This document shows, piece after piece, positions 9,627 through 23,945 of a stretch of 32,000 bases of DNA; the stretch's first letter is position 1; every line of letters begins with the position of its first letter. The stretch lies in NCBI RefSeq assembly GCF_000007145.1, contig NC_003902.1, forward strand, positions 2,426,497 through 2,458,496. Reading direction: 5' to 3'. The stretch comes from Xanthomonas campestris pv. campestris str. ATCC 33913 (GTDB lineage: Bacteria > Pseudomonadota > Gammaproteobacteria > Xanthomonadales > Xanthomonadaceae). Under the pieces are notes generated by a model, which did not search any database, was not told where the DNA came from, and saw only the letters and a program-made list of their open reading frames with translations. The position numbers and the translations under genes are program-made.

Positions 9627-9711
9627 TTCGCTGGTGTCGTCCTTGTGGACCACACCCCGCCCCCCGGTTCCCCTCCGGGGCCCGGGTCAAGGGGTAGGGG
9701 ATAGGGGCTTC

Positions 9712-9879
9712 ATGGACACACACGCACTCGCACTGCTCAGCGCCTCCGCGCTGACCGTTGGCTTCGGGCTAGTCCGCCTCGCCGGCTGGGTGCGTGATCG
9801 CAAGCATGCCGCGATGGTCGCGCAAATTGAGCAAGCCGCGCTGGTCGCAATCGCATATCGCGAGGTGCGACGTGGCTGA
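9712..9879 (+). CDS. Small hydrophobic phage protein (55 aa), coupled to Rep
   Basis: The ATG at 9712 follows a G-rich RBS region. There is a TM-like segment ([22 protein letters not shown]). The stop TGA at 9877-9879 overlaps a candidate Rep GTG start at 9872 (GTGGCTGA). Confidence 0.45.
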
Positions 9880-10912
9880 CGGCACCTGCTCGTTCTGCGG
9901 TGAACCCACCGTCTACTTTTTCCCCGGTGGCCTCTGCGTTTCTTGTACGTCGAAGAACGCACGCATCCGCATGCAGGAACAGCCCACGCAATCGCGTGAG
10001 CTATCCGCGTTTGATGCATCTGTGGGCGTCATGCAGGCCGCTACGCGCCGCACTGAAATTGCCGCAGAGAAGATCCAAAAGAACAAGCGTGTGGTCGGCA
10101 CAAGCGTGCGTGAGTTCGACGCTGCCCATCCCATCGCATTGACCCCAGAGGGCCAGCGCGCAGCGCTGGCCCTTGGGCTTGTCCATTACAAAACAAGTGA
10201 CACGCGGGCCTCTACAACCGGCACCGTGACCATCGAAATTGACCCGCTACAAGCGCGGGCGCAACGGCTGCGCAAGTCCGTGATTACCGGAGCACGTCTG
10301 CATGACCAGGAAGCGAAAAAAGGCTCCTTCCGTGGTGCGTGGTATTTCCTCACGCTCACCTACCGTGATGGAAGCGACAGCAGCCCTCGTGACGTTAGCG
10401 AACTATTTAAACGCATGCGCGGCCACTTCAATCGCCTTAAATCTGGGCGCGCACGGTGGAACCGTGAAAGCTTTCGTTACGTATGGGTCGGAGAGCTCAC
10501 CCAACGATTCCGACCGCACTACCACGTGATGTTGTGGGTGCCTCAGGGCATGTTTTTTGGCAAGGTCGATCAACGCGGATGGTGGCCCCATGGCAGCAGC
10601 CAAATCGAGAAGGCCCGCAACTGCGTCGGCTATCTCGCCAAATACGCAAGCAAGTTCACCGCCATTACAGCTGCTGCTTTTCCCAAGGGATTTCGCACAC
10701 ACGGCTGCGGTGGACTCAACACCGAATCCAAGCGCGAATTGCGCTGGTGGAAAGCACCCAAAGACGCGCGTGAAGCTCTCGGCGGGGAAGCGGATATCCG
10801 CAAAGCAAAGGGCGGATGGTTCGACAGGCTTACCGGAGAGTTCTGGCCGTCTCCGTGGAAAGTCACATTCATTTTCGGCCGGACATTCGCCTGGAAGGTA
10901 GTCCAACTATGA
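9794..10912 (+). CDS. Rolling-circle replication initiator (gene II / phage CRI-type Rep)
   Basis: It has a HUH-type motif ([11 protein letters not shown]) and a catalytic Tyr motif ([10 protein letters not shown]). There is an N-terminal four-Cys zinc ribbon (CSFCG...CVSC). The true start may be the GTG at 9872, coupled to the upstream ORF, rather than the ATG at 9794. Confidence 0.8.
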
Positions 10913-11205
10913 AAGTGCAGATCATGAGTTCCGCTGTCGCTGTTCGTTCGTTCCCCGCGCGCGAGGGTAAGCCCGCGACGCATTTCCGTGAGCAGACCGC
11001 CGCTGTGCTGCGTGAGGGCGATTTCCCACTGCCGTTCACCATCGGTCTGGACGAGGATCAACCGCCGTATGGCGAGGGCTTCTACATCATCGATCCCAAG
11101 TCGTTGCAGAACAATAAATTCGGCGGTCTCGAGTTCGGCCGTCGCATTCGTCTGATTCCGGACCTCACTGCGAAGCTGCAACAGCAGCCCGCAAAGGTCG
11201 GGTGA
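10909..11205 (+). CDS. ssDNA-binding protein (gene V-like, 98 aa)
   Basis: The ATG at 10909 overlaps the Rep stop (ATGA). The position directly after Rep and the size match inovirus gV. Confidence 0.6.
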
Positions 11206-11208
11206 TTC

Positions 11209-11460
11209 ATGGCGATGTGCGTAGCCCTGCAAGTGGATGGCACGTTGGTGCCCACCGGCCAATCGGTCGGCGAGTGCAGCGGCTACGTGCTCGTCAGTGG
11301 TAGCGAATACAGCGTGTATGCGCTGGTGCAAGAAGCGTTCGCAATGCCCAGCCAGGAGGACGCCGTAGCGTGGTCCACCGGCTGCTGTGGCCTGGTGATC
11401 GTGTGGTTCGTCCTGGGGCGCCTTGCCGGCAGCGTCGCGGGCATGTTCAACGACCGGTAA
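11209..11460 (+). CDS. Hypothetical small phage protein with a C-terminal TM (83 aa)
   Basis: The ORF starts 3 nt after the gV-like stop. It has a hydrophobic C-terminus (CCGLVIVWFVLGRLAGSVAG). It sits where minor coat or morphogenesis genes are expected. Confidence 0.45.
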   Translation: MAMCVALQVDGTLVPTGQSVGECSGYVLVSGSEYSVYALVQEAFAMPSQEDAVAWSTGCCGLVIVWFVLGRLAGSVAGMFNDR

Positions 11461-11487
11461 ATCAATCAATCAAATAGGAGAGACAAC

Positions 11488-11616
11488 ATGGGTGACATTC
11501 TGACTGGCGTGAGCGGTGCTGAAGCTGCTACCGCGATGATCGCAGCGGCCGCAATCATTGCCTTGGTGGGCTTCACCAAGTGGGGTGCCAAGAAGGTTGC
11601 AAGCTTCTTCGGCTAA
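11488..11616 (+). CDS. Major coat protein (gene VIII-like, 42 aa). It falls below the ORF-track size cutoff.
   Basis: A strong RBS (AGGAGAGACAAC) precedes the ATG. The translation is MGDILTGVSGAEAATAMIAAAAIIALVGFTKWGAKKVASFFG. It has an acidic/neutral N-terminus, a hydrophobic core and a basic C-terminus, which is the classic inovirus coat layout. Confidence 0.8.
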   Translation: MGDILTGVSGAEAATAMIAAAAIIALVGFTKWGAKKVASFFG

Positions 11617-11674
11617 TGGTGGTGAGGGCAGGGCGGCGCTTCGGTGTCGCCCTCTCTCTTTCTGGGGTGGGGCG

Positions 11675-11749
11675 ATGATTATTTTGTTGTTCTGTGGATT
11701 CATGGGCGCGCTGTGCGGTTGGGCAGGCGTCAAGGGGTTGGACGCGTGA
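11675..11749 (+). CDS. Possible 24-aa hydrophobic minor coat protein (gVII/gIX-like)
   Basis: The ATG at 11675 follows GGGGTGGGG. The translation is [24 protein letters not shown]. The stop TGA overlaps the GTG start of the next gene (GTGA, 11746-11749). Confidence 0.35.
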
Positions 11750-12804
11750 TTCGCGTTTCGTTGGCAATGCTGATTCTTTTAGCGCTCACGTTCTCTCCTA
11801 TCGTGCATGCTACGTGCGTGCAGACTGAGCCATCAACGTCTGCAAATAACGGTTCGTGGGCCTGTAGCGATCAGGGAGAGGCATTCGCGAAGGCGTCTTC
11901 CATGGGTGTGCCTGCTGATCTTTCGGTGTGTCGTATGAAATCCATCCGTGCGGTGTCTTCTGGTCCTGGCGTTTTCTCGCAGCGCATGACCTATCCCGGC
12001 GACACATGCGGGATCGGGTATGACCTCGATATTGGCACCGGCAATGCCACGTATCCGGACACTGCTACCTGTGCAAAGCGACCGTCCCAAAGCGGCTGGA
12101 CTAATCCGACAGCACCCACGCCATCTGACGTTTGCAACGATGGCTGCTACTACACGTATGCCGTCGATGCTGGTGGCCCCAAGGGCTACACCTATGTGCC
12201 TAGTGGCGCCACGTGCACTACGGATGATGCAGCGCCTCCTATCGATGACGGTGGTGATGGCGATGATGATGGTGGTGGAGACGGTGGCGGCGATGGTGGT
12301 GGAGACGGTGGCGGCGATGGCGGTGGAGACGGCGGTGGAGACGGCGGTGGAGACGGCGGTGGAGATGGTGGTGGAGACGGCGGTGGAGATGGTGACGGCG
12401 GTGGTGATGGCGATGGCGATGGTGACGGTGATGGCGACGGCGACGGTGATGGCGATGGTGATGGTGATGGCGGAACGCTTCCCGGCGACGGTGATGGCGA
12501 GGAAGGCGGCGAGGGCGCACCCATGTCTGAGCTCTACAAGAAAAGTGGCAAGACTGTTGAGTCTGTGCTGAGCAAATTCAATACGCAGGTGCGCGGCACG
12601 CCCATGGTGGCCGGTATCGGCGATTTCATGAAAGTACCCTCCGGCGGATCGTGTCCTGTGTTCTCGCTGGGTGCGTCGAAGTGGTGGGACGCCATGACGA
12701 TCAATTTTCACTGTGGCGGCGATTTCCTGGCGTTTTTGCGCGCGGCTGGCTGGGTGATTCTCGCCATTGCTGCGTACGCCGCAATTCGCATTGCTGTGAC
12801 CTGA
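11746..12804 (+). CDS. Adsorption/minor coat protein (gene III-like) with an acidic Gly/Asp repeat linker
   Basis: The GTG at 11746 gives the signal peptide (M)[21 protein letters not shown]|TC. There is a Cys-rich N-domain, then (GGGD)x10 and (GD)n linkers, and a C-terminal membrane anchor ([18 protein letters not shown]). The ORF track shows the frame open from 11644. Confidence 0.75.
12244..12474 (+). repeat. In-frame tandem 12-nt (GGxGGxGGxGAy) and 6-nt (GGyGAy) repeats inside the gIII-like gene
   Basis: I read this directly. It encodes [12 protein letters not shown](GGGD)n...(GD)n. Confidence 0.9.
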
Positions 12805-12814
12805 GGGCGACGCT

Positions 12815-13135
12815 ATGCAAGCAGGTTGGTTCAACGATTTGACCGCGTGGCTGTGGCGTGCGGTCAAGATGGTGTGGCAGGCGATTGTCGATTTTGTGGG
12901 CGACTTGTTTGTGATGTGGCTGGAACAGTCGCTGTCGGCAATTCTCTATGTGCTGACGTTGCTGCCCATGCCCGACTTCATGAAGGGGCAGAGCATTGGC
13001 GGCATGCTCGGTAATGCGGGTAGCACCATCTTGTGGTTTGCCGATGTATTCATGATTGGTCCGGCGCTGGTGATGATCGGCGCGGCCATGATTTTTTTTC
13101 TCCTTCGCCGCGTGCTGACGCTCGGGATTTGGTGA
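12815..13135 (+). CDS. Minor coat protein (gene VI-like, 106 aa, multi-TM)
   Basis: It lies between the gIII-like and Zot-like genes. It is hydrophobic, and its stop is 1 nt before the zot ATG. Confidence 0.6.
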   Translation: MQAGWFNDLTAWLWRAVKMVWQAIVDFVGDLFVMWLEQSLSAILYVLTLLPMPDFMKGQSIGGMLGNAGSTILWFADVFMIGPALVMIGAAMIFFLLRRVLTLGIW

Positions 13136-13136
13136 C

Positions 13137-14459
13137 ATGCTCGTATTCAATGAAGGTGTGCCGCGTGCCGGCAAGAGTTACGACGCGGTAAAGAATCACA
13201 TTCTTCCGGCGCTCAAAAAGGGGCGTCGTGTGTTTGCGCGATTGAATGGGTTGCGCTTTGACCGCATCGCCAAGCACCTGGGCATGGCGGAGAATGATGT
13301 TCAGCACTTGCTTGTGCTGGTGGACACCAAGGACGTGTCGAAGTTGTTTGCGTGCACGCAGGACGAGTCGGGCAAGTGGTGTATCCCGGACGAGTTCAAA
13401 GACGCATTGGTTGTGATCGATGAGGTGCATGAGTTCTACGTCAACGAGCGCAAGCCGCTCGCGCCGGCCGTCGAGAATTTTTGGGCGCTGCTTGGCCAGA
13501 ACGGCGGCGATGCCGTGATCATGACGCAATGGATCAACCGCTTGCACTCGGCGGTCAAGGCGCGCATCGAGAAGAAAAACACGTTCCAGAAGCTCACCGC
13601 TATCGGCATGAAGGGCCGCTATCGCGTGACGTATTTCCACACGACCTCACCGGGCAAGTTTGAGAAGGTCGGCGGTCAAACGCTCAAGTACGACCCGGCC
13701 ATTTTTCCGCTCTATGACGGCTATGCGCCTGGTGCCGAGAACACCGAGGTTTACGAGGAGGGCGGTAAAAACGTCTGGGCCGCGATGGCTGTGCGCGCTG
13801 CCATCTTCCTCACACTCGGCGGGGTCGGCATCTACTTCTTCATGCACTATTTCACCAAGGATCGCGCCGATCCCAACAAGCCTATGGCATCTGCCAGCCA
13901 GACCACCAAACCCACGCACGTTGGCGCGGGGTTTGCTAACGGTGCGCCGAGTGTGCCGATTCAGCCGCCTCCGCCTGATCCGCTCGCAGACCTCACGCAA
14001 GAGCAGCGCTATGTGGCTCAGCTTGCCGACAAGGGCCGCATTCGGCTCTCCGCGCGGGCGCGCGTAGGTGATCAGGACCGTGCGTGGATTCAGTGGATTG
14101 ACGCGAGCAACAACGTCGTGGAGGAGTTGGATCTGTCGCAGTTGCGCGCCCTGGGTTACAGCGTCAGCGTCGTCACGTATGGCGTGCGTCTTTCGGCCGG
14201 CAAGCACATCATGGTGGCCACCGCGTGGCCCTGGACCGCGCCCATTCGTGAGAAGGACGCACGGCTTTACAACATGGCCCCAGACGGGAGCGGCGGCGCT
14301 GCTGGCGTTGCGACCGCAGGGAGTGACGGCGGCGGCGCTGACCGCGACCAGGTGCGCGGCGGCGTGATCGAGTACGGACCGCGCACCCAAGGCACGTTCC
14401 CGGACAACAAGGGTTACAGTTCAAGCACCAGCACGCCGGCCACCACGTTGCAGATGTAG
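13137..14459 (+). CDS. zot: Zot / gene I-like phage assembly ATPase (440 aa)
   Basis: An N-terminal Walker A motif (FNEGVPRAGKSY) and a Walker B-like motif (LVVIDEVHEF) are present. There is a central TM (AAMAVRAAIFLTLGGVGIYFFMHYF), then a ~190-aa C-terminal domain. Confidence 0.85.
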   Translation: MLVFNEGVPRAGKSYDAVKNHILPALKKGRRVFARLNGLRFDRIAKHLGMAENDVQHLLVLVDTKDVSKLFACTQDESGKWCIPDEFKDALVVIDEVHEFYVNERKPLAPAVENFWALLGQNGGDAVIMTQWINRLHSAVKARIEKKNTFQKLTAIGMKGRYRVTYFHTTSPGKFEKVGGQTLKYDPAIFPLYDGYAPGAENTEVYEEGGKNVWAAMAVRAAIFLTLGGVGIYFFMHYFTKDRADPNKPMASASQTTKPTHVGAGFANGAPSVPIQPPPPDPLADLTQEQRYVAQLADKGRIRLSARARVGDQDRAWIQWIDASNNVVEELDLSQLRALGYSVSVVTYGVRLSAGKHIMVATAWPWTAPIREKDARLYNMAPDGSGGAAGVATAGSDGGGADRDQVRGGVIEYGPRTQGTFPDNKGYSSSTSTPATTLQM

Positions 14460-14462
14460 TTT

Positions 14463-14476
14463 CGTGACGCGTCACG
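14463..14476. promoter_or_regulatory. Perfect 14-bp palindrome CGTGACGCGTCACG between the convergent zot and 102-aa genes
   Basis: I read this directly. It is mirrored at 16070-16083. It could be a bidirectional stop signal or a protein-binding site. Confidence 0.3.
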
Positions 14477-14478
14477 AT

Positions 14479-14787
14479 TTAGCACGGATCGTTTGGCAAT
14501 TCTTGCCATCCATTAGATAGCCGACGGAAGCGCTTGTGTTGAATGCATCGTTCGTTCGATTCCAGCGCTCGTAGTTGCAGCGTCGGCAGTTCTGCAGGTT
14601 GGGTGCGGGGCCTGTACAGCGGTTGCGGGGCGACTGGTAGCGCTGCACTGACGCTGCGCATGGTGAAGTAGCCCAGGCATAGCGCCACCACGCCGGCAAG
14701 CGCTGCGGTCATCAGCTGGCCTACGAAAATGCCTAAGGCGATTTCCCACCAAAGCCCATCATGGTTGTTCTGCGGTCTGTAGCTCAT
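14479..14787 (-). CDS. Phage membrane protein with a C-terminal two-Cys motif (102 aa), unknown function
   Basis: The ATG at 14787 follows a GGGGG RBS. There is a hydrophobic N-terminal segment (WWEIALGIFVGQLMTAALAGVVALCLGYF). The C-terminus is ERCIQHKRFRRLSNGWQELPNDPC. An identical copy is at 15759-16067 and a paralog is at 8368-8808. Confidence 0.65.
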   Translation of the reverse strand: MSYRPQNNHDGLWWEIALGIFVGQLMTAALAGVVALCLGYFTMRSVSAALPVAPQPLYRPRTQPAELPTLQLRALESNERCIQHKRFRRLSNGWQELPNDPC

Positions 14788-14824
14788 ACGGCCCCCTGTG
14801 ACGATGAGCGGGCATTGTAGGGGT

Positions 14825-14843
14825 GTAGGGGCATAGCCCCTAC
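14825..14843. promoter_or_regulatory. Hairpin GTAGGGGC-ATA-GCCCCTAC preceded by the direct repeat TGTAGGGG TGTAGGGG
   Basis: I read this directly. It lies between the DUF3653-like stop and the 102-aa gene start. It is mirrored at 15703-15721 with a different loop. Confidence 0.4.
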
Positions 14844-14853
14844 GGATAACGCC

Positions 14854-15180
14854 TCACACGCGGCCTTTGCGCCTCCGCGCCGGTGCTGATGATAATCCTG
14901 CGCATTTCGCCGCTGGACCCGTATCCACCCGTTGCAAACCCGCCTTTTTCTCCTGCCGTTTTCTGAACTGGTCACGGAGATAGATCACGCCGGCCGGCCG
15001 TTTGGGCGGTGTCTTGGCGCGGCCCTCGGCCATCATGGTTGACCACTCACGGGCTATCGTGCAGGTCAGCGATAGCCACTGTAGATCCGATGGTGCGATG
15101 GATCTGCCTTCGGGCGTGATGAGGTGGCCACCCTGGAACGAAAAACCGGCCCAAGGGCCGGTGAGTGTTTTATTTCGCAT
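14854..15180 (-). CDS. DUF3653-like phage protein, variant 1 (108 aa)
   Basis: The ATG at 15180 has GGAG upstream. The translation is MRNKTLTGPWAGFSFQGGHLITPEGRSIAPSDLQWLSLTCTIAREW... with a basic C-terminal tail. It is homologous to, but diverged from, ORF 15354-15692. The family name is from memory. Confidence 0.6.
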   Translation of the reverse strand: MRNKTLTGPWAGFSFQGGHLITPEGRSIAPSDLQWLSLTCTIAREWSTMMAEGRAKTPPKRPAGVIYLRDQFRKRQEKKAGLQRVDTGPAAKCAGLSSAPARRRKGRV

Positions 15181-15252
15181 CCGCCAAACTCCATGTGGCG
15201 GGCCATGGTCGCCGCCGCGGCGTGATCGCAGCAGCAAGCCATGCCAGTAGCC

Positions 15253-15280
15253 TCCTGACATAATATACATTATGCGAAAT
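15253..15280 (-). other. Complete dif-like XerCD site B. The minus strand reads ATTTCGCATAA-TGTATA-TTATGTCAGGA.
   Basis: The layout is 11-6-11, with the same central TGTATA and inner arm bases as E. coli dif (GGTGCGCATAA-TGTATA-TTATGTTAAAT). It sits at the junction of the two prophages. Confidence 0.75.
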
Positions 15281-15353
15281 GGACTGTATTGACGCTCCTG
15301 TGCCTCGTGGCGGTCTATCAATGGTTGTCCCTCCACAGGAAGCGGACCGGACA

Positions 15354-15692
15354 ATGCAGCTAGACACCTACGATCACGTAGACCTGACCGGCCCCTGGGC
15401 CGGTTTTGGTTTTCAGGGCTATCGATTCTTCACCCCGGAAGGCCGCGAAGTGCGGCCGGAAGAAATGCGGTGGTGGTCGCTGACATGCACCATCGCGCGC
15501 GAGTGGGCGCTGATGATGGCCGAAGAGCGGGAGCGTGTGTGGCATCCCCGCCCGGCCGAAGTCATCTACCTGCGGGACGTGATCCGGCGCAGGCGTGAAA
15601 GGCGGTTATCAGTGGTGGATGGCGCGGGGTCCGCCGACAGGGCGCGAGTGATCCGAGCAACGCGGGGGCCAAGAGATCCACGGCGCGGGTGA
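15354..15692 (+). CDS. DUF3653-like phage protein, variant 2 (112 aa)
   Basis: The ATG at 15354 has an AGGAAG RBS. The translation is MQLDTYDHVDLTGPWAGFGFQGYRFFTPEGREVRPEEMRWWSLTCTIAREW... The ORF-track start at 15279 lies inside site B and is less likely. Confidence 0.6.
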   Translation: MQLDTYDHVDLTGPWAGFGFQGYRFFTPEGREVRPEEMRWWSLTCTIAREWALMMAEERERVWHPRPAEVIYLRDVIRRRRERRLSVVDGAGSADRARVIRATRGPRDPRRG

Positions 15693-15758
15693 GGCGTTAT
15701 CCGTAGGGGCTCTGCCCCTACACCCCTACAATGCTCGCTCATCGTCACAGGGGGCCGT

Positions 15759-16067
15759 ATGAGCTACAGACCGCAGAACAACCATGATGGGCTTTGGTGG
15801 GAAATCGCCTTAGGCATTTTCGTAGGCCAGCTGATGACCGCAGCGCTTGCCGGCGTGGTGGCGCTATGCCTGGGCTACTTCACCATGCGCAGCGTCAGTG
15901 CAGCGCTACCAGTCGCCCCGCAACCGCTGTACAGGCCCCGCACCCAACCTGCAGAACTGCCGACGCTGCAACTACGAGCGCTGGAATCGAACGAACGATG
16001 CATTCAACACAAGCGCTTCCGTCGGCTATCTAATGGATGGCAAGAATTGCCAAACGATCCGTGCTAA
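15759..16067 (+). CDS. Phage membrane protein with a C-terminal two-Cys motif (copy 2)
   Basis: The translation is identical to 14479-14787. Confidence 0.65.
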   Translation: MSYRPQNNHDGLWWEIALGIFVGQLMTAALAGVVALCLGYFTMRSVSAALPVAPQPLYRPRTQPAELPTLQLRALESNERCIQHKRFRRLSNGWQELPNDPC

Positions 16068-16086
16068 ATCGTGACGCGTCACGAAA

Positions 16087-17409
16087 CTACATCTGCAACG
16101 TGGTGGCCGGCGTGCTGGTGCTTGAACTGTAACCCTTGTTGTCCGGGAACGTGCCTTGGGTGCGCGGTCCGTACTCGATCACGCCGCCGCGCACCTGGTC
16201 GCGGTCAGCGCCGCCGCCGTCACTCCCTGCGGTCGCAACGCCAGCAGCGCCGCCGCTCCCGTCTGGGGCCATGTTGTAAAGCCGTGCGTCCTTCTCACGA
16301 ATGGGCGCGGTCCAGGGCCACGCGGTGGCCACCATGATGTGCTTGCCGGCCGAAAGACGCACGCCATACGTGACGACGCTGACGCTGTAACCCAGGGCGC
16401 GCAACTGCGACAGATCCAACTCCTCCACGACGTTGTTGCTCGCGTCAATCCACTGAATCCACGCACGGTCCTGATCACCTACGCGCGCCCGCGCGGAGAG
16501 CCGAATGCGGCCCTTGTCGGCAAGCTGAGCCACATAGCGCTGCTCTTGCGTGAGGTCTGCGAGCGGATCAGGCGGAGGCGGCTGAATCGGCACACTCGGC
16601 GCACCGTTAGCAAACCCCGCGCCAACGTGCGTGGGTTTGGTGGTCTGGCTGGCAGATGCCATAGGCTTGTTGGGATCGGCGCGATCCTTGGTGAAATAGT
16701 GCATGAAGAAGTAGATGCCGACCCCGCCGAGTGTGAGGAAGATGGCAGCGCGCACAGCCATCGCGGCCCAGACGTTTTTACCGCCCTCCTCGTAAACCTC
16801 GGTGTTCTCGGCACCAGGCGCATAGCCGTCATAGAGCGGAAAAATGGCCGGGTCGTACTTGAGCGTTTGACCGCCGACCTTCTCAAACTTGCCCGGTGAG
16901 GTCGTGTGGAAATACGTCACGCGATAGCGGCCCTTCATGCCGATAGCGGTGAGCTTCTGGAACGTGTTTTTCTTCTCGATGCGCGCCTTGACCGCCGAGT
17001 GCAAGCGGTTGATCCATTGCGTCATGATCACGGCATCGCCGCCGTTCTGGCCAAGCAGCGCCCAAAAATTCTCGACGGCCGGCGCGAGCGGCTTGCGCTC
17101 GTTGACGTAGAACTCATGCACCTCATCGATCACAACCAATGCGTCTTTGAACTCGTCCGGGATACACCACTTGCCCGACTCGTCCTGCGTGCACGCAAAC
17201 AACTTCGACACGTCCTTGGTGTCCACCAGCACAAGCAAGTGCTGAACATCATTCTCCGCCATGCCCAGGTGCTTGGCGATGCGGTCAAAGCGCAACCCAT
17301 TCAATCGCGCAAACACACGACGCCCCTTTTTGAGCGCCGGAAGAATGTGATTCTTTACCGCGTCGTAACTCTTGCCGGCACGCGGCACACCTTCATTGAA
17401 TACGAGCAT
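16087..17409 (-). CDS. zot: Zot / gene I-like assembly ATPase (copy 2)
   Basis: The translation is identical to 13137-14459. Confidence 0.85.
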   Translation of the reverse strand: MLVFNEGVPRAGKSYDAVKNHILPALKKGRRVFARLNGLRFDRIAKHLGMAENDVQHLLVLVDTKDVSKLFACTQDESGKWCIPDEFKDALVVIDEVHEFYVNERKPLAPAVENFWALLGQNGGDAVIMTQWINRLHSAVKARIEKKNTFQKLTAIGMKGRYRVTYFHTTSPGKFEKVGGQTLKYDPAIFPLYDGYAPGAENTEVYEEGGKNVWAAMAVRAAIFLTLGGVGIYFFMHYFTKDRADPNKPMASASQTTKPTHVGAGFANGAPSVPIQPPPPDPLADLTQEQRYVAQLADKGRIRLSARARVGDQDRAWIQWIDASNNVVEELDLSQLRALGYSVSVVTYGVRLSAGKHIMVATAWPWTAPIREKDARLYNMAPDGSGGAAGVATAGSDGGGADRDQVRGGVIEYGPRTQGTFPDNKGYSSSTSTPATTLQM

Positions 17410-17741: not shown

Positions 17742-18800
17742 TCAGGTCACAGCAATGCGAATTGCGGCGTACGCAGCAATGGCGAGAATCACCCAGCCAG
17801 CCGCGCGCAAAAACGCCAGGAAATCGCCGCCACAGTGAAAATTGATCGTCATGGCGTCCCACCACTTCGACGCACCCAGCGAGAACACAGGACACGATCC
17901 GCCGGAGGGTACTTTCATGAAATCGCCGATACCGGCCACCATGGGCGTGCCGCGCACCTGCGTATTGAATTTGCTCAGCACAGACTCAACAGTCTTGCCA
18001 CTTTTCTTGTAGAGCTCAGACATGGGTGCGCCCTCGCCGCCTTCCTCGCCATCACCGTCGCCGGGAAGCGTTCCGCCATCACCATCACCATCGCCATCAC
18101 CGTCGCCGTCGCCATCACCGTCACCATCGCCATCGCCATCACCACCGCCGTCACCATCTCCACCGCCGTCTCCACCACCATCTCCACCGCCGTCTCCACC
18201 GCCGTCTCCACCGCCGTCTCCACCGCCATCGCCGCCACCGTCTCCACCACCATCGCCGCCACCGTCTCCACCACCATCATCATCGCCATCACCACCGTCA
18301 TCGATAGGAGGCGCTGCATCATCCGTAGTGCACGTGGCGCCACTAGGCACATAGGTGTAGCCCTTGGGGCCACCAGCATCGACGGCATACGTGTAGTAGC
18401 AGCCATCGTTGCAAACGTCAGATGGCGTGGGTGCTGTCGGATTAGTCCAGCCGCTTTGGGACGGTCGCTTTGCACAGGTAGCAGTGTCCGGATACGTGGC
18501 ATTGCCGGTGCCAATATCGAGGTCATACCCGATCCCGCATGTGTCGCCGGGATAGGTCATGCGCTGCGAGAAAACGCCAGGACCAGAAGACACCGCACGG
18601 ATGGATTTCATACGACACACCGAAAGATCAGCAGGCACACCCATGGAAGACGCCTTCGCGAATGCCTCTCCCTGATCGCTACAGGCCCACGAACCGTTAT
18701 TTGCAGACGTTGATGGCTCAGTCTGCACGCACGTAGCATGCACGATAGGAGAGAACGTGAGCGCTAAAAGAATCAGCATTGCCAACGAAACGCGAATCAC
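17742..18800 (-). CDS. Gene III-like adsorption protein (copy 2)
   Basis: The translation is identical to 11746-12804, including the repeat length. The GTG start is at 18800. Confidence 0.75.
18072..18302 (-). repeat. Gly/Asp-coding tandem repeats inside gIII-like copy 2
   Basis: It is the mirror of 12244-12474. Confidence 0.9.
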
Positions 18801-20959: not shown

Positions 20960-21424
20960 GTGGACACCATAAATAAATTGCTTGACACAGCGCGAAAAGC
21001 ATGCTCGCGCGACTCAGACAACAGCGTTGCGCTGTCGCTTGGCGTGTCGCGGAATTCGGTTTCCGTGTGGCGCAAAGGCGGAAAAATCACCGACGCACAT
21101 CTGATGGCGCTTATCGACCTGGCACAGGCTGACCCTGCGCTAGCAGTGAAAGTGCGAGAGGAAGAAGCCGGATCGGCCGTCGAACGCAAGGCGTGGAGTG
21201 CGCTGTGGGACAGACTGTCCCCGGTCACTACGGTGATCGGGGGCCTGGTCCTGGCAATCGGCATGATGCCGGCGACGGGTCGGACGAAAGGCCTTGATAT
21301 TCAACAGCTTGCACGGGTTGACGGCGCATATTCTGTATATTATGTCATAATAACGCCTGCAGGAGCATCAGTTCAAACCATTGCGTACGACAACCCAGTC
21401 AAAGCCGTCAGATGGCCGCAGTAA
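20960..21424 (+). CDS. Putative phage immunity repressor 2 (HTH N-terminus, hydrophobic C-terminal segment). The 3' end reads through att site C.
   Basis: It has a GTG start and an HTH-like segment (SDNSVALSLGVSRNSVSVWRKGG). ERKAWSALWDRLS is followed by the hydrophobic helix VTTVIGGLVLAIGMM. Codons GAYSVYYVII are encoded by site C. The last 52 nt overlap the convergent TraX-like gene. Confidence 0.6.
   Translation: MDTINKLLDTARKACSRDSDNSVALSLGVSRNSVSVWRKGGKITDAHLMALIDLAQADPALAVKVREEEAGSAVERKAWSALWDRLSPVTTVIGGLVLAIGMMPATGRTKGLDIQQLARVDGAYSVYYVIITPAGASVQTIAYDNPVKAVRWPQ
21323..21350 (+). other. XerCD-type hybrid att site C: GGCGCATATTC-TGTATA-TTATGTCATAA (phage arm + centre + dif XerD arm)
   Basis: I read this directly. 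The right 14 nt match the XerD side of site B (TGTATATTATGTCA). Confidence 0.7.
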
Positions 21425-22023
21425 TACATGTAGAACGCTCTACCCGTCCGCGGGATGGCCCATGACAGGTAAGCCAAACCTGCAACCGGCAGCGCAAGCA
21501 GCGGCCACAACGTCCGGTTCACCAAGCACAAGAGCACTAGCGGAATCACCAAGAGCACAACAACCGACACTGCCCTTGGCCATCGCCAGCCCGCTGGATT
21601 GCGCCAGAACAGCCAGGCACCGAGTACAACAGCCAGCCCGTTCCACCGATAGTCAACCAGGTAAGGTGCCGGCAACAGGCAGAACGCCAACACAATCCAT
21701 TTTCGTTCTTCGATCGCACGAATACAGACAGCTGCCAATGCGAAGGACAAGAGAATATTGAGCGGCAGTGCCCGATTGAATGCGATCGCCGCAATCGGTG
21801 TCGCAACGAGTCCCCACAGGAACAAACGCTTGATCAACTTGGCGACATCAGCACCCGGCTGCGCCAAATTGTAGGCAAACACCAGTGCGAACAATGGAAA
21901 TGCCACGCGGCCCAGTTCTGCAATGACCGGCATATAGCCCAGGTGCAAAATCTTCAAGGTGTGGTCGCCTGTCATAAACAGCAGCGCGAGCCACTTCACC
22001 AATTCACGGCCTCCGCTTGTCAT
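21373..22023 (-). CDS. TraX-family membrane protein
   Basis: A 216-aa polytopic membrane protein with an N-terminal LVKWLALLFMTGDH motif typical of the TraX family. The family is from memory. Confidence 0.55.
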   Translation of the reverse strand: MTSGGRELVKWLALLFMTGDHTLKILHLGYMPVIAELGRVAFPLFALVFAYNLAQPGADVAKLIKRLFLWGLVATPIAAIAFNRALPLNILLSFALAAVCIRAIEERKWIVLAFCLLPAPYLVDYRWNGLAVVLGAWLFWRNPAGWRWPRAVSVVVLLVIPLVLLCLVNRTLWPLLALPVAGLAYLSWAIPRTGRAFYMYYCGHLTALTGLSYAMV

Positions 22024-22151: not shown

Positions 22152-23945
22152 CTATCTCACAGCCCCATTGTCTTCCTGCAACTCCCGCTTGAACGGCACA
22201 TCCGGTGGCGGCCTTGCGGTGGCTGGTTGATCGTTGAGATTCGGGTCGCTCAGGCCGCAGCCGCCGCCGAATTGCAGCAACGACACCACGCAGCTGATCT
22301 TGGTCGTGGTGCCGGGAATGGGAATTTCGATCTTCTTCAATCCGCGCCGCACCCATTCCTGCAGCAGCGTCTGGTTCGGCATCCAATACTTGTCCAGCGA
22401 CGTCGGCGTGTAACCGTACGGCGGCCGCTTGAGCCAGGTGCCGCCTTGCGCAATCTGGTCACGCGTCCAGGTGTCGGTATCGCTGCCCGGCGGGCCGCGA
22501 TCGCCAGCGCCATTGCCGGCCTCGCCACCGGCGGCAACCCGCACGCTGCCGTCGTTGTTGAACATGCCGTCGCGTTTGCCATCGGCACCGGTTGCCTGCC
22601 CGGGACGGTCGCGGGTCGATTTGCTCCAGTCGTCCGCGTTGGCCGCCACATCCCATCCGCCACTGCGATCAACCGGTTTCGGGCCGGCACCGCTGCTGGC
22701 CGCCGGCTTGCTGGATGCAGCGGCCGCTGACGCCGGTTTCGCAGATTGCGCAGCCGTCTGCTGGTTGGTCTGATTAGCGGCTGACGGCGCGCTGGAAGGT
22801 GCCGGCGCCGCAGGCGCTATGGGTACCGCCGCGTCCGAAGGCGTCTGCACGACTGTCGGTTGCGCCGGGGGTGTCTGCGCCGGCGTCGGCTGTGGCGCCG
22901 GGTCCGGCACGTTCGGCAGCTCCGCAGCACGCACCGCCAGCTCGGGCATGCGAACCGTGGGAACCAACTCACGTGCACGCACTGTGGGCGCGGTGACCCT
23001 AGCCTGTTCGGGCACGACGATCTCGCGCTCGCGCACGGTGGGTGCCGCGGCAGCGCGCACGGCAACGGCGGCAGTCGGTTGCTGCAGTTCGCGCACCTGT
23101 GGCCGCTCGGTAACCGTCTGGATCTCGCGCTGGCGTACCTGCGGTGCAGCCGGCTCGATCGGGCGTGGCGCCACAGTGATGGTGGGCGGTGGCGGGACGA
23201 CGAAATCCGTGGTCGGCACCGGTGTTTCAGTCACCTGCAGCGGCGATTCCAGCGTGACCTGCGGCACCTGCACACGGATCTGCGGGATATCGGGCGTACT
23301 GGGTTCCGCCGCCGCAGCCACAACAAGTTCGGGCGCGACGTCCGGCACGTCGGCTGCCGGCTCCACTGGCTCGGCCACTGTGGATGCGGTGCTTGCCGGC
23401 GACGCTGCTGCTGACGACGCGGCTGCCGCAGATGCCGCCGCTTGCTGAGCGCCAGATGCCGCTGTGGCTGGCGCAGCGTCCGCGGCCGGCTCGCCTTCGC
23501 CACCGCCCTGATCTGCGGCGCCCTCGCCTACATAGGTCAGGCGCACCCGCGCCTCGTCGCCCTGTTTGGTGTCGTCCGGGGCCCAGCGCACGCTGACCAC
23601 CCACAGCAACAAGGCGATAAATCCCAGGTGGATCAGCGCACTGCCGAGTACAGCCCCCCAGTGCAGCGGGCGCTCGTCGCGCGGGCGCGGGTCCCAGTGT
23701 TGCCACCACAGGCTGCGGAATGCCTGGAACGGACTCAGTCTTCCCGCCATGCCGTCTCGAGGTCGCGGCGCAGGACGCGCCAACAGCGCGTCCGTCAGTT
23801 GGTCGTCATCAAACCGTGCTGGCGTACCCAGCCGCCCCCGCATCCAGATGCCCCAGCCATAGGGCAACCCGGTCCGCCGATCCAGAATGAGCTTGCCCGG
23901 CATGCGCGCCAACAGCGCCTGCAGGAGATCGGCAGCGGTTGTCAC
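22152..23945 (-). CDS. Pro/Ala-rich repetitive transmembrane protein (597 aa), unknown function
   Basis: It has a TM helix (WGAVLGSALIHLGFIALLLWVV) and a long A/P/T/V-rich region with repeated xVRxRE[IL] units. The C-terminal domain is globular-looking. It starts 13 bp downstream of the nfuA stop on the same strand. Confidence 0.6.
   Translation of the reverse strand: MTTAADLLQALLARMPGKLILDRRTGLPYGWGIWMRGRLGTPARFDDDQLTDALLARPAPRPRDGMAGRLSPFQAFRSLWWQHWDPRPRDERPLHWGAVLGSALIHLGFIALLLWVVSVRWAPDDTKQGDEARVRLTYVGEGAADQGGGEGEPAADAAPATAASGAQQAAASAAAASSAAASPASTASTVAEPVEPAADVPDVAPELVVAAAAEPSTPDIPQIRVQVPQVTLESPLQVTETPVPTTDFVVPPPPTITVAPRPIEPAAPQVRQREIQTVTERPQVRELQQPTAAVAVRAAAAPTVREREIVVPEQARVTAPTVRARELVPTVRMPELAVRAAELPNVPDPAPQPTPAQTPPAQPTVVQTPSDAAVPIAPAAPAPSSAPSAANQTNQQTAAQSAKPASAAAASSKPAASSGAGPKPVDRSGGWDVAANADDWSKSTRDRPGQATGADGKRDGMFNNDGSVRVAAGGEAGNGAGDRGPPGSDTDTWTRDQIAQGGTWLKRPPYGYTPTSLDKYWMPNQTLLQEWVRRGLKKIEIPIPGTTTKISCVVSLLQFGGGCGLSDPNLNDQPATARPPPDVPFKRELQEDNGAVR

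Follow-up and report, generated by a model that had tools for sequence, protein, structure and literature searches.

Integrative filamentous phages affect the virulence of plant (Xanthomonas) and human pathogens, and how assembly starts in such phages when the pIX and pIV proteins of Ff (M13/f1) are missing is the question on which the locus described here bears. The locus is a reverse-strand cassette of two genes, one for a DUF3653 protein and one for a membrane protein of 102 amino acids (open reading frame ORF102), located beside the phage attachment site attP in a 32,000-nt stretch of the chromosome of Xanthomonas campestris pv. campestris (Xcc) ATCC 33913, hereafter the window. The closest described system is phage phiLf-UK, whose sequence is treated in two preprints by Yeh et al. 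(bioRxiv 10.1101/2023.12.30.573655 and 10.1101/2024.03.19.585677). These map the packaging signal (PS) within gII. The 2024 preprint (10.1101/2024.03.19.585677) reports 100 sequenced pseudorevertants of PS mutant phage: 54 were altered in ORF9 (T7A, T22A), the product of which was named PSB15, 28 in ORF11 (R80L, R88C), 8 in gVII and 10 in gI. The LTG/WAGFxF/TPE segment of PSB15 cross-links to PS DNA, its basic helix and tail bind cardiolipin, and its linker binds thioredoxin (TrxA). Virion production needs PSB15 in trans, the knock-out being assembly-defective, while replication of the replicative form and integration proceed without it and attL and attR form normally (Yeh et al.). The preprints characterise PSB15 only, work on ORF11 being called 'underway'.

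Two further systems invite comparison. The Ff proteins pVII, pIX and pI, small inner-membrane proteins and a Zot-type ATPase, resemble ORF11 in that point mutations in them make an intact packaging signal dispensable (Russel and Model 1989, cited via the preprints). ORF11 differs from them in having no sequence or fold similarity to any, in being three times larger, in its position on the opposite strand and in its beta module with two cysteines. XafT (VC1465), encoded by TLCphi of Vibrio cholerae, resembles the DUF3653 protein of the window in its DUF3653 domain and in having its gene beside the Xer site of a dif-integrating filamentous element (PMC6744903). In XafT a helix-turn-helix (HTH) domain is fused to DUF3653, whereas in the window the HTH (DUF3693) repressor has a gene of its own, which overlaps the DUF3653 gene; a fused HTH-DUF3653 frame is annotated only in phiLf2 and phrog_34897. 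A further difference is that packaging-signal DNA is bound by the motif of the window-type DUF3653 protein, whose loss does not prevent integration (Yeh et al. preprint). Midonet et al. (PMC6744903) found DUF3653 genes beside dif in every dif-integrated phage of the Xanthomonadales, their position and orientation varying with subclass. Two apparently conflicting roles have been published for the domain, XerD activation and packaging-signal binding.

The window contains the phiLf-UK locus itself. Positions 9202-15264 are 100% identical to Xanthomonas phage phiLf-UK (NC_073754 / MH206184, 6062 nt), and since the phiLf-UK record states that the phage was synthesised from the prophage coordinates of Xcc ATCC 33913 (AE008922.1), the two are the same locus. 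The genes of the cassette and their mirror copies are as follows:

14479..14787, minus strand: ORF102 (ORF11 of phiLf-UK), 102 amino acids, single-pass membrane protein, phrog_3073; codons for R80 at 14548-14550, C81 at 14545-14547, R88 at 14524-14526 and C102 at 14482-14484
15759..16067, plus strand: second, identical copy of ORF102, within an inverted repeat
14854..15180, minus strand: DUF3653 gene, copy A (ORF9/PSB15 of phiLf-UK), ATG-started, 108 amino acids, PF12375
15354..15692, plus strand: DUF3653 gene, copy B, mirror copy, 112 amino acids, PF12375

A preliminary description of this DNA, made from the letters alone, had placed a two-gene reverse-strand cassette at 14479-15180 beside attP and called its first gene DUF3653-like. 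Both points are borne out: the two ORFs and their mirror copies are present, a dif-like core lies 73 nt upstream of the copy-A start, and both DUF3653 copies exceed the Pfam gathering threshold for PF12375 of 22.4 bits (copy A with 34.1 bits, copy B with 25.0 bits). Copy A combines the LTGPWAGFSF and TPEGR motifs with a basic helix and a basic tail. It is 100% identical over 108 amino acids to gp09 of NC_073754, annotated there as 'phiLf ORF112 protein' and corresponding to ORF9 at nt 4983-5309 of MH206184; the same record places attP inside the repressor gene and holds no annotation for the 102-aa ORF. Copy B shares 54-62% amino-acid identity with copy A and keeps the LTG, WAGFxF and TPEG motifs. 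From the copy B gene to the core, 497 nt are 100% identical to classical phiLf (MN263053), ORF112 of that phage included.

The published suppressor mutations can be mapped directly onto the window. T5291C and T5246C correspond to T7A and T22A in the DUF3653 protein, and C4678A and G4655A to R80L and R88C in ORF102, inside its C-terminal motif. It is because the published changes fall on T7/T22 and R80/R88 that we equate the DUF3653 gene with PSB15 and ORF102 with ORF11. Judged by this identity, the cassette is one already described, and partly characterised, in phiLf-UK; this is the locus from which the first packaging-signal-binding protein was reported, and the cassette itself is not a discovery. 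What is novel relative to the preprints of Yeh et al. is the invariant cysteine pair of ORF11, its wider family, a long form of the protein and a flipped dif segment.

Gene order is shared across several phages. phiLf-UK, identical in sequence, has the same minus-strand trio of XRE repressor, DUF3653 protein (ORF9/PSB15) and 'putative chloride channel protein' (ORF11), with the XRE/DUF3693 '18.2K' repressor gene overlapping the start of the DUF3653 gene by 11 nt. On the replicative form three minus-strand genes follow one another, those of the 18.2K repressor, PSB15 and ORF11, and the repressor stop overlaps the PSB15 start. Cf2 carries this trio in identical order, also on the minus strand and with its counterpart of the 102-aa protein labelled 'chloride channel protein EriC', and has in common with phiLf-UK both the repressor gene overlap and an attP within the repressor gene. 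The order DUF3653 then ORF102, convergent with Zot, recurs in phiLf, phiLf2, Cf2, fSU1, X. vasicola and X. bromi, and also in a proteobacterial metagenome-assembled genome, the proteins of which are ~54-56% identical; a locus search with an 18-sequence alignment of ORF102 returned 7 related loci.

On balance, we favour the view that the cassette is an assembly-initiation module of the phiLf-type Xanthomonas filamentous phages. As shown for this very sequence in the preprint, PSB15 binds the packaging-signal hairpin of the phage single-stranded DNA via its LTG/WAGFxF/TPE motif; its basic helix and tail bring the DNA to the cardiolipin-rich inner membrane, and thioredoxin releases it. ORF11, a single-pass protein of the inner membrane, would be the membrane-resident partner of PSB15, a role proposed because of the suppressors at R80 and R88, the adjacency of the two genes and their conservation. 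Together with pI (Zot) and pVII it may then act in a packaging-signal-dependent checkpoint that starts extrusion. With attP inside the repressor gene, integration parts PSB15 and ORF11 from that gene, probably with regulatory consequences. There is no pIX homologue in phiLf-type phages, and by analogy we infer that ORF11 may occupy the genetic slot of Ff pIX. Among the functions floated in the preliminary description, control of extrusion comes closest to this evidence, PSB15 being an assembly factor and ORF11 the site of the R80 and R88 suppressors.

What does ORF11 itself look like? Residues 1-102 of ORF102, its entire length, align with positions 1-103 of the PHROG 3073 profile (E 1.8e-64). 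A transmembrane (TM) helix is predicted at about residues 12-42, and a conserved C-terminal module spans residues 75-102 (L75, R80, C81, G93, W94, C102). The close family consists of 29 clusters from Xanthomonas, Stenotrophomonas and Pseudoxanthomonas, named 'chloride channel protein' by NCBI; an exhaustive profile search brings the ORF102 family to 114 representative clusters. Across the 18 aligned sequences, R4, W13, I16, G19, I20, L75, R80, C81, R86, G93, W94, P101 and C102 are invariant. When 63 diverse sequences, down to 20% identity, are considered, C81 and C102 are the only invariant columns left, with L75, R80, G93 and W94 each conserved in at least 90% of sequences. Exactly two cysteines follow the TM helix in 149 of 154 distinct members and none precedes it in 150 of the 154, while the spacing from W94 to the last cysteine varies among them. 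The invariant cysteines of ORF11 flank the published suppressor sites.

The C-terminal module also occurs on a second, longer scaffold, represented in the window by a third copy of the membrane gene and the remains of its partner:

8368..8808, minus strand: long-form homologue (copy 3), 146 amino acids, with the C-terminal two-cysteine module
8885..9098, minus strand: frameshifted pseudogene of the DUF3653-like partner of copy 3, aligned with a 117-aa gene in two reading frames

Copy 3 has a conserved motif, MERQEPTLG..VEFRPR, in its N-terminal part, then a TM helix and a helical linker that leads to the C-terminal two-cysteine module. It belongs to a long-form family of 62 clusters which has only that module in common with the short form. 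Consistent with this, copy 3 matches PHROG 3073 in its C-terminal part only (E 0.009). Profiles built independently for the short and the long form match each other over 36 columns with an hhalign probability of 99% (E 5.7e-18); the diverged third version with the same C-terminal pattern, pointed out in the preliminary description, is thus a genuine homologue over that segment. Intact long-form genes are found at the equivalent position in XacF1/Cf1c-like prophages of X. albilineans and X. vesicatoria. In XacF1-like prophages they are convergent with Zot or Zot-TraX and follow a diverged DUF3653-like gene of 117 amino acids. It is the 117-aa gene of the X. albilineans and X. vesicatoria prophages that 8885-9098 matches across two frames; Pfam returns no match for this frameshifted partner, which is recognised only via the intact 117-aa genes. 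By this correspondence, 8368-8808 and 8885-9098 are the relic of a third filamentous prophage to the left of attL. In all, the cassette is present two and a half times in the window. The long-form pair in XacF1-like prophages, together with the relic, means that the two-gene cassette is conserved in two phage lineages, in short form in the phiLf-type phages and in long form in the XacF1-like prophages, and its earlier description as conserved holds in this extended sense.

The same description had contrasted a membrane protein identical in both prophages with a strongly diverged DUF3653-like gene. The identity is real, yet it carries no evolutionary weight. The two prophages form an inverted repeat of 5202 nt with 23 mismatches (20 at 9668-10147 and 3 at 14811-14858), and 10148-14810 (4.66 kb, ORF102 included) is perfectly identical between them; because the ORF102 copies sit inside this identical block, their identity is uninformative about selection. 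An 821-nt centre (14863-15683) and the outer repressor genes do differ between the prophages. The contrast between divergent DUF3653 genes and an identical membrane gene is, from the layout of the repeat, a product of repeat homogenisation and module swapping rather than of differential selection. Comparison between phages is more telling. Overall ratios of nonsynonymous to synonymous substitution (dN/dS) for ORF102 are 0.05-0.18 (phiLf-UK, Cf2, Xf409, fSU1), and within residues 75-102 dN never exceeds 0.05 while dS amounts to 0.6-2.3 for five of the six pairs and to 0.19 for the closest one. This substitution pattern indicates that the C-terminal two-cysteine motif is under selection at the protein level, so here the earlier suggestion of selection stands, and the alternative of an overlapping nucleotide signal falls away.

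An AlphaFold2 (AF2) model of ORF102 predicts a helix (residues 10-49) and three strands (79-97), and both AF2 models, that of the short and that of the long form, place a three-stranded beta module after the TM helix, at a per-residue confidence (pLDDT) of ~80-90. A Foldseek comparison of the ORF102 model with the PDB produced no match with E <1, a profile search of PDB sequences with ORF102 gave chance matches only, and Pfam and NCBIfam hold nothing beyond chance for either ORF102 or copy 3. A type IV pilin-like reading of the N-terminus was considered and rejected: the prepilin peptidase site would be G|F/M-x-x-x-E, and ORF102 reads HDG-LWWE/Q, where position +1 is neither Phe nor Met and the Glu/Gln at +4 is not conserved as Glu.

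On which side of the membrane does the module lie? We consider two arrangements, a periplasmic module stapled by a disulfide and a basic module in the cytoplasm, to be evenly balanced. A periplasmic location is plausible given the exact cysteine pair at variable spacing and a charge bias that is weakly in favour of the N-terminus being inside (59 vs 29). The residues nearest the helix point to the opposite orientation, with acidic residues directly before the helix and basic ones directly after it, and the module is very basic. A cytoplasmic location may be favoured by this high basicity, by the charges flanking the helix, by suppressors that remove an arginine, and by the fact that PS DNA, PSB15 and thioredoxin are all cytoplasmic.

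ORF11 could also be a trans-envelope checkpoint in which the short N-terminus and TM helix sense the PSB15/packaging-signal complex at the cytoplasmic face, while a disulfide-stapled, basic C-terminal beta module in the periplasm controls the access of pI (Zot) to the host secretin, replacing the functions of both pIX and pIV of Ff. We think this rather unlikely. If it were true, a module of ~30 residues with two cysteines, borne on two N-terminal chassis in >150 proteins, would be a new and widespread assembly or export adaptor of dif-integrating filamentous phages.

Between the two genes of the cassette lies a short palindrome, present in both prophages:

14825..14843, minus strand: palindrome/stem-loop GTAGGGGC-TAT-GCCCCTAC, between the DUF3653 stop and the ORF102 start
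15703..15721, plus strand: mirror palindrome of the inverted copy, with loop TCT instead of TAT

TACAAT (14814-14819) comes next, together with a GGGGG ribosome-binding site. In the general form GTAGGGGC-N3-4-GCCCCTAC it is kept in short-form and long-form cassettes, including loci L003, L005, L008, L011, L013, L014 and L019 of our collection, with 97% of cells paired and one compensatory change (UA to CG) in two sequences; upstream of the remnant gene at 8368-8808 the palindrome is degenerate. It may be an operator or an RNA stem-loop.

A second hairpin lies within the DUF3653 gene. The signature codons for T-G-P-W-A-G-F (ACC GGC CCN TGG GCC GGT TTT) form a terminator-like GC hairpin of 7-8 bp followed by a T run, at 15145-15162 on the minus strand and 15386-15405 on the plus strand. 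The rare codons GGT and TTT are retained in most Xanthomonas homologues and the wobble base in the loop is variable. A function as terminator is unproven, the folding energy being ordinary for the composition (z -1.0 and -2.2).

Several observations count against a role for the cassette in starting assembly. ORF102 is confined to some Xanthomonas filamentous phages (phiLf, phiLf-UK, phiLf2, Cf2, Xf409 and fSU1) and is absent from the related phages Cf1c, XacF1 and Xf109, where the long-form homologue may substitute for it. The functional data come from preprints and, for ORF11, amount to two suppressor alleles, which could act indirectly. The invariant cysteine pair with its variable spacing suggests a disulfide in the periplasm, and a periplasmic module is harder to link to a DNA signal in the cytoplasm. 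An intact long-form gene beside a frameshifted partner, in an otherwise decayed remnant, hints at a role outside assembly. Finally, a sigma-70 promoter scan of 14300-16300 found no site and gives no support to a promoter for the cassette; the TACAAT box is a resemblance only.

What else might the cassette do? One scenario, to which the preliminary description had also pointed, makes it an accessory to Xer recombination: the DUF3653 protein would, like XafT, activate XerD for FtsK-independent integration and excision at dif, with ORF102 as its passenger or helper. We regard this as possible, with the balance tipped against it, and it is compatible with a role in assembly. The DUF3653 domain is common to XafT, and the repressor-DUF3653 fusion in phrog_34897 and in phiLf2 gp09 recalls the HTH+DUF3653 architecture of that protein. 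There is also a weak match to the NCBIfam family NF040522 (VC1465_fam, Xer recombination activation factor; E 4.5e-10), although the scores of 39.6 and 25.3 bits stay below the curated cut-off of 70 bits. The remaining support comes from the Xer sites themselves:

15254..15280, minus strand: full dif-like Xer site ATTTCGCATAA-TGTATA-TTATGTCAGG (complete: ATTTCGCATAATGTATATTATGTCAGG), between the two prophage tails
9194..9220, plus strand: left junction ATTTCGCATAA-TGTATA-GAAGGTGCCG (host XerC arm, central region, degenerate phage arm)
21322..21349, plus strand: right outer junction GGCGCATATTC-TGTATA-TTATGTCATAA, at the 3' end of repressor B

The site at 15254-15280 is the sole full dif-like site in the window (0 expected by chance). 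It is flanked by the two divergent DUF3653 genes, and its XerD-type arm is supplied by the copy-A tail. Throughout the window (15238-15290) and eight other Xcc genomes (loci L022-L029, around 7911), wherever the type in question occurs, the A-type DUF3653 gene always abuts the XerD-type arm (CCTCCTGACATAA) and the B-type gene always the XerC arm (TTATGCGAAAT/G). The native pairings are A-type with GGCGCATATTC-TGTATA-TTATGTCAGG and B-type with ATTTCGCATAA-TGTATA-GAAGGTGCCGT. Against the Xer scenario, attL and attR form normally without PSB15 (preprint), the DUF3653 motif itself cross-links to PS DNA (preprint) and there is no link between ORF102 and Xer. In the published integration test, which was negative, the phage was a synthetic one with a chimeric combination of tail and attP. 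A dual function of the DUF3653 protein, in assembly and at Xer sites, could accommodate both sets of results, and the strict subtype-arm pairing together with the chimeric nature of the test phage offers a route to resolving the conflict between the two published roles. Of the earlier proposal, then, the homology to XafT stands, whereas the reported lack of effect of PSB15 loss on integration speaks against it.

Alternatively, ORF102 and the long form might not be assembly factors at all but membrane proteins expressed by the lysogen that block superinfection, by interfering with uptake or assembly of an incoming related phage. The best argument for this, which we nevertheless think improbable, is the survival of an intact, conserved long-form gene at 8368-8808 when its partner is frameshifted and the rest of the phage is gone, although this remnant is perhaps merely young. 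The conserved palindrome and TACAAT box upstream could in addition allow independent, regulated expression. Other filamentous phages do encode small exclusion proteins of the inner membrane. One of these, the superinfection-exclusion protein PfsE from Pseudomonas phage Pf4, has ~30 amino acids and acts on the type IV pilus protein PilC. PfsE and ORF102 are both small membrane proteins from integrative filamentous phages and both have a conserved aromatic motif, but homology between the two was not detected in any search. The suppressor genetics, by contrast, connects ORF11 with packaging, and the PADLOC defence models gave no match; superinfection exclusion, the third function suggested in the preliminary description, accordingly finds no direct support.

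The last explanation, that a nucleotide-level signal (terminator, origin or packaging signal) lies behind the C-terminal motif or that the protein is a chloride channel, is effectively refuted: the gene does end 19 nt from the gI stop, beside a small hairpin, and homologues do bear the channel name in NCBI and phage records, but synonymous sites in the motif are heavily substituted while its amino acids are fixed, the packaging signal maps elsewhere (inside gII), and ORF102, which has one predicted TM helix in 102 residues against ~18 in the CLC/EriC channels with which it has the name alone in common, matches no CLC or other channel family in Pfam or NCBIfam (Voltage_CLC: no match at E up to 0.1) and no structure in the PDB.

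Turning from the cassette as an assembly module to its setting, the arrangement of the two prophages requires an explanation of its own. The 18.2K repressor gene (9099-9584, minus strand) contains the left junction within its 3' end, and the right outer junction is at the 3' end of repressor B (20960-21424, plus strand; DUF3693, Cf2-like). Both DUF3693 repressor genes run into Xer junctions; integration replaces their last ~30 codons and cuts them off from the downstream DUF3653 and ORF102 genes, with which there is overlap in the replicative form. The two attP classes, that of phiLf and that of Cf2/phiLf2, have opposite polarity relative to the phage genes, which is why the two prophages integrated in opposite orientations. 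The three Xer sites, however, are oriented plus, minus, plus, and this excludes simple integrations as the origin of the present arrangement. Flipping the centre in silico yields a complete phiLf prophage (98.9% identity over 6035 nt) with direct cores at 9200 and 15266. Other Xcc genomes provide an independent view. In CP142009, CP124534 and CP156004 all cores have the same orientation; CP142009 and CP124534 carry repressor B and the A-type DUF3653 gene on the TraX side and have the B-type gene joined to another repressor. CP000050 (strain 8004) and CP155999 show the flipped order of the window, and in the single lysogens L027 and L029 the B-type gene adjoins a direct pair of cores.

We infer from these comparisons that the centre was flipped, and the 'tails' of the prophages swapped, by homologous recombination between the inverted prophage bodies. 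Choices made in genome assembly could contribute to the orientation of the centre in some genomes. Two other routes were rejected: neither insertion of prophage B at a secondary site within prophage A nor a Xer-mediated inversion of the centre agrees with the junction sequences, whereas body-to-body recombination fits them and is confirmed by the other genomes. The arrangement further suggests that 'phiLf-UK' and 'phiLf2', both synthesised from database coordinates, are tail-swapped hybrids; a flip of the centre would explain the origin of both and is relevant to users of these synthetic phages.

A related layout is seen in Stenotrophomonas humi (locus L013, 5111-6462), where a dif-like site (ACTTTACATAATATACATTATGCGAAAA, at 5469) has a DUF3653 gene on either side, the two being divergent. 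A long-form membrane gene lies on one side and there are no other phage genes, so the locus is tail-to-tail like the centre of the window but a remnant only.

Outside the prophages, the XerD side of dif is flanked by a TraX/TrbP-like gene (21373-22023, minus strand) and a 597-aa ORF without family (22152-23945, minus strand). The same pair stands beside dif in other Xanthomonas genomes, and TraX also occurs within Xf409- and XacF1-like filamentous phages, beside Zot; the TraX-like gene and the 597-aa ORF may be an older phage remnant. Within the prophages, a 12-nt tandem repeat rich in GGT/GAC (12220-12513 and 18034-18333) encodes the Gly/Asp-rich linker of the adsorption protein pIII, a linker reported to be 19 residues longer than in phiLf (Yeh et al. 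preprint).

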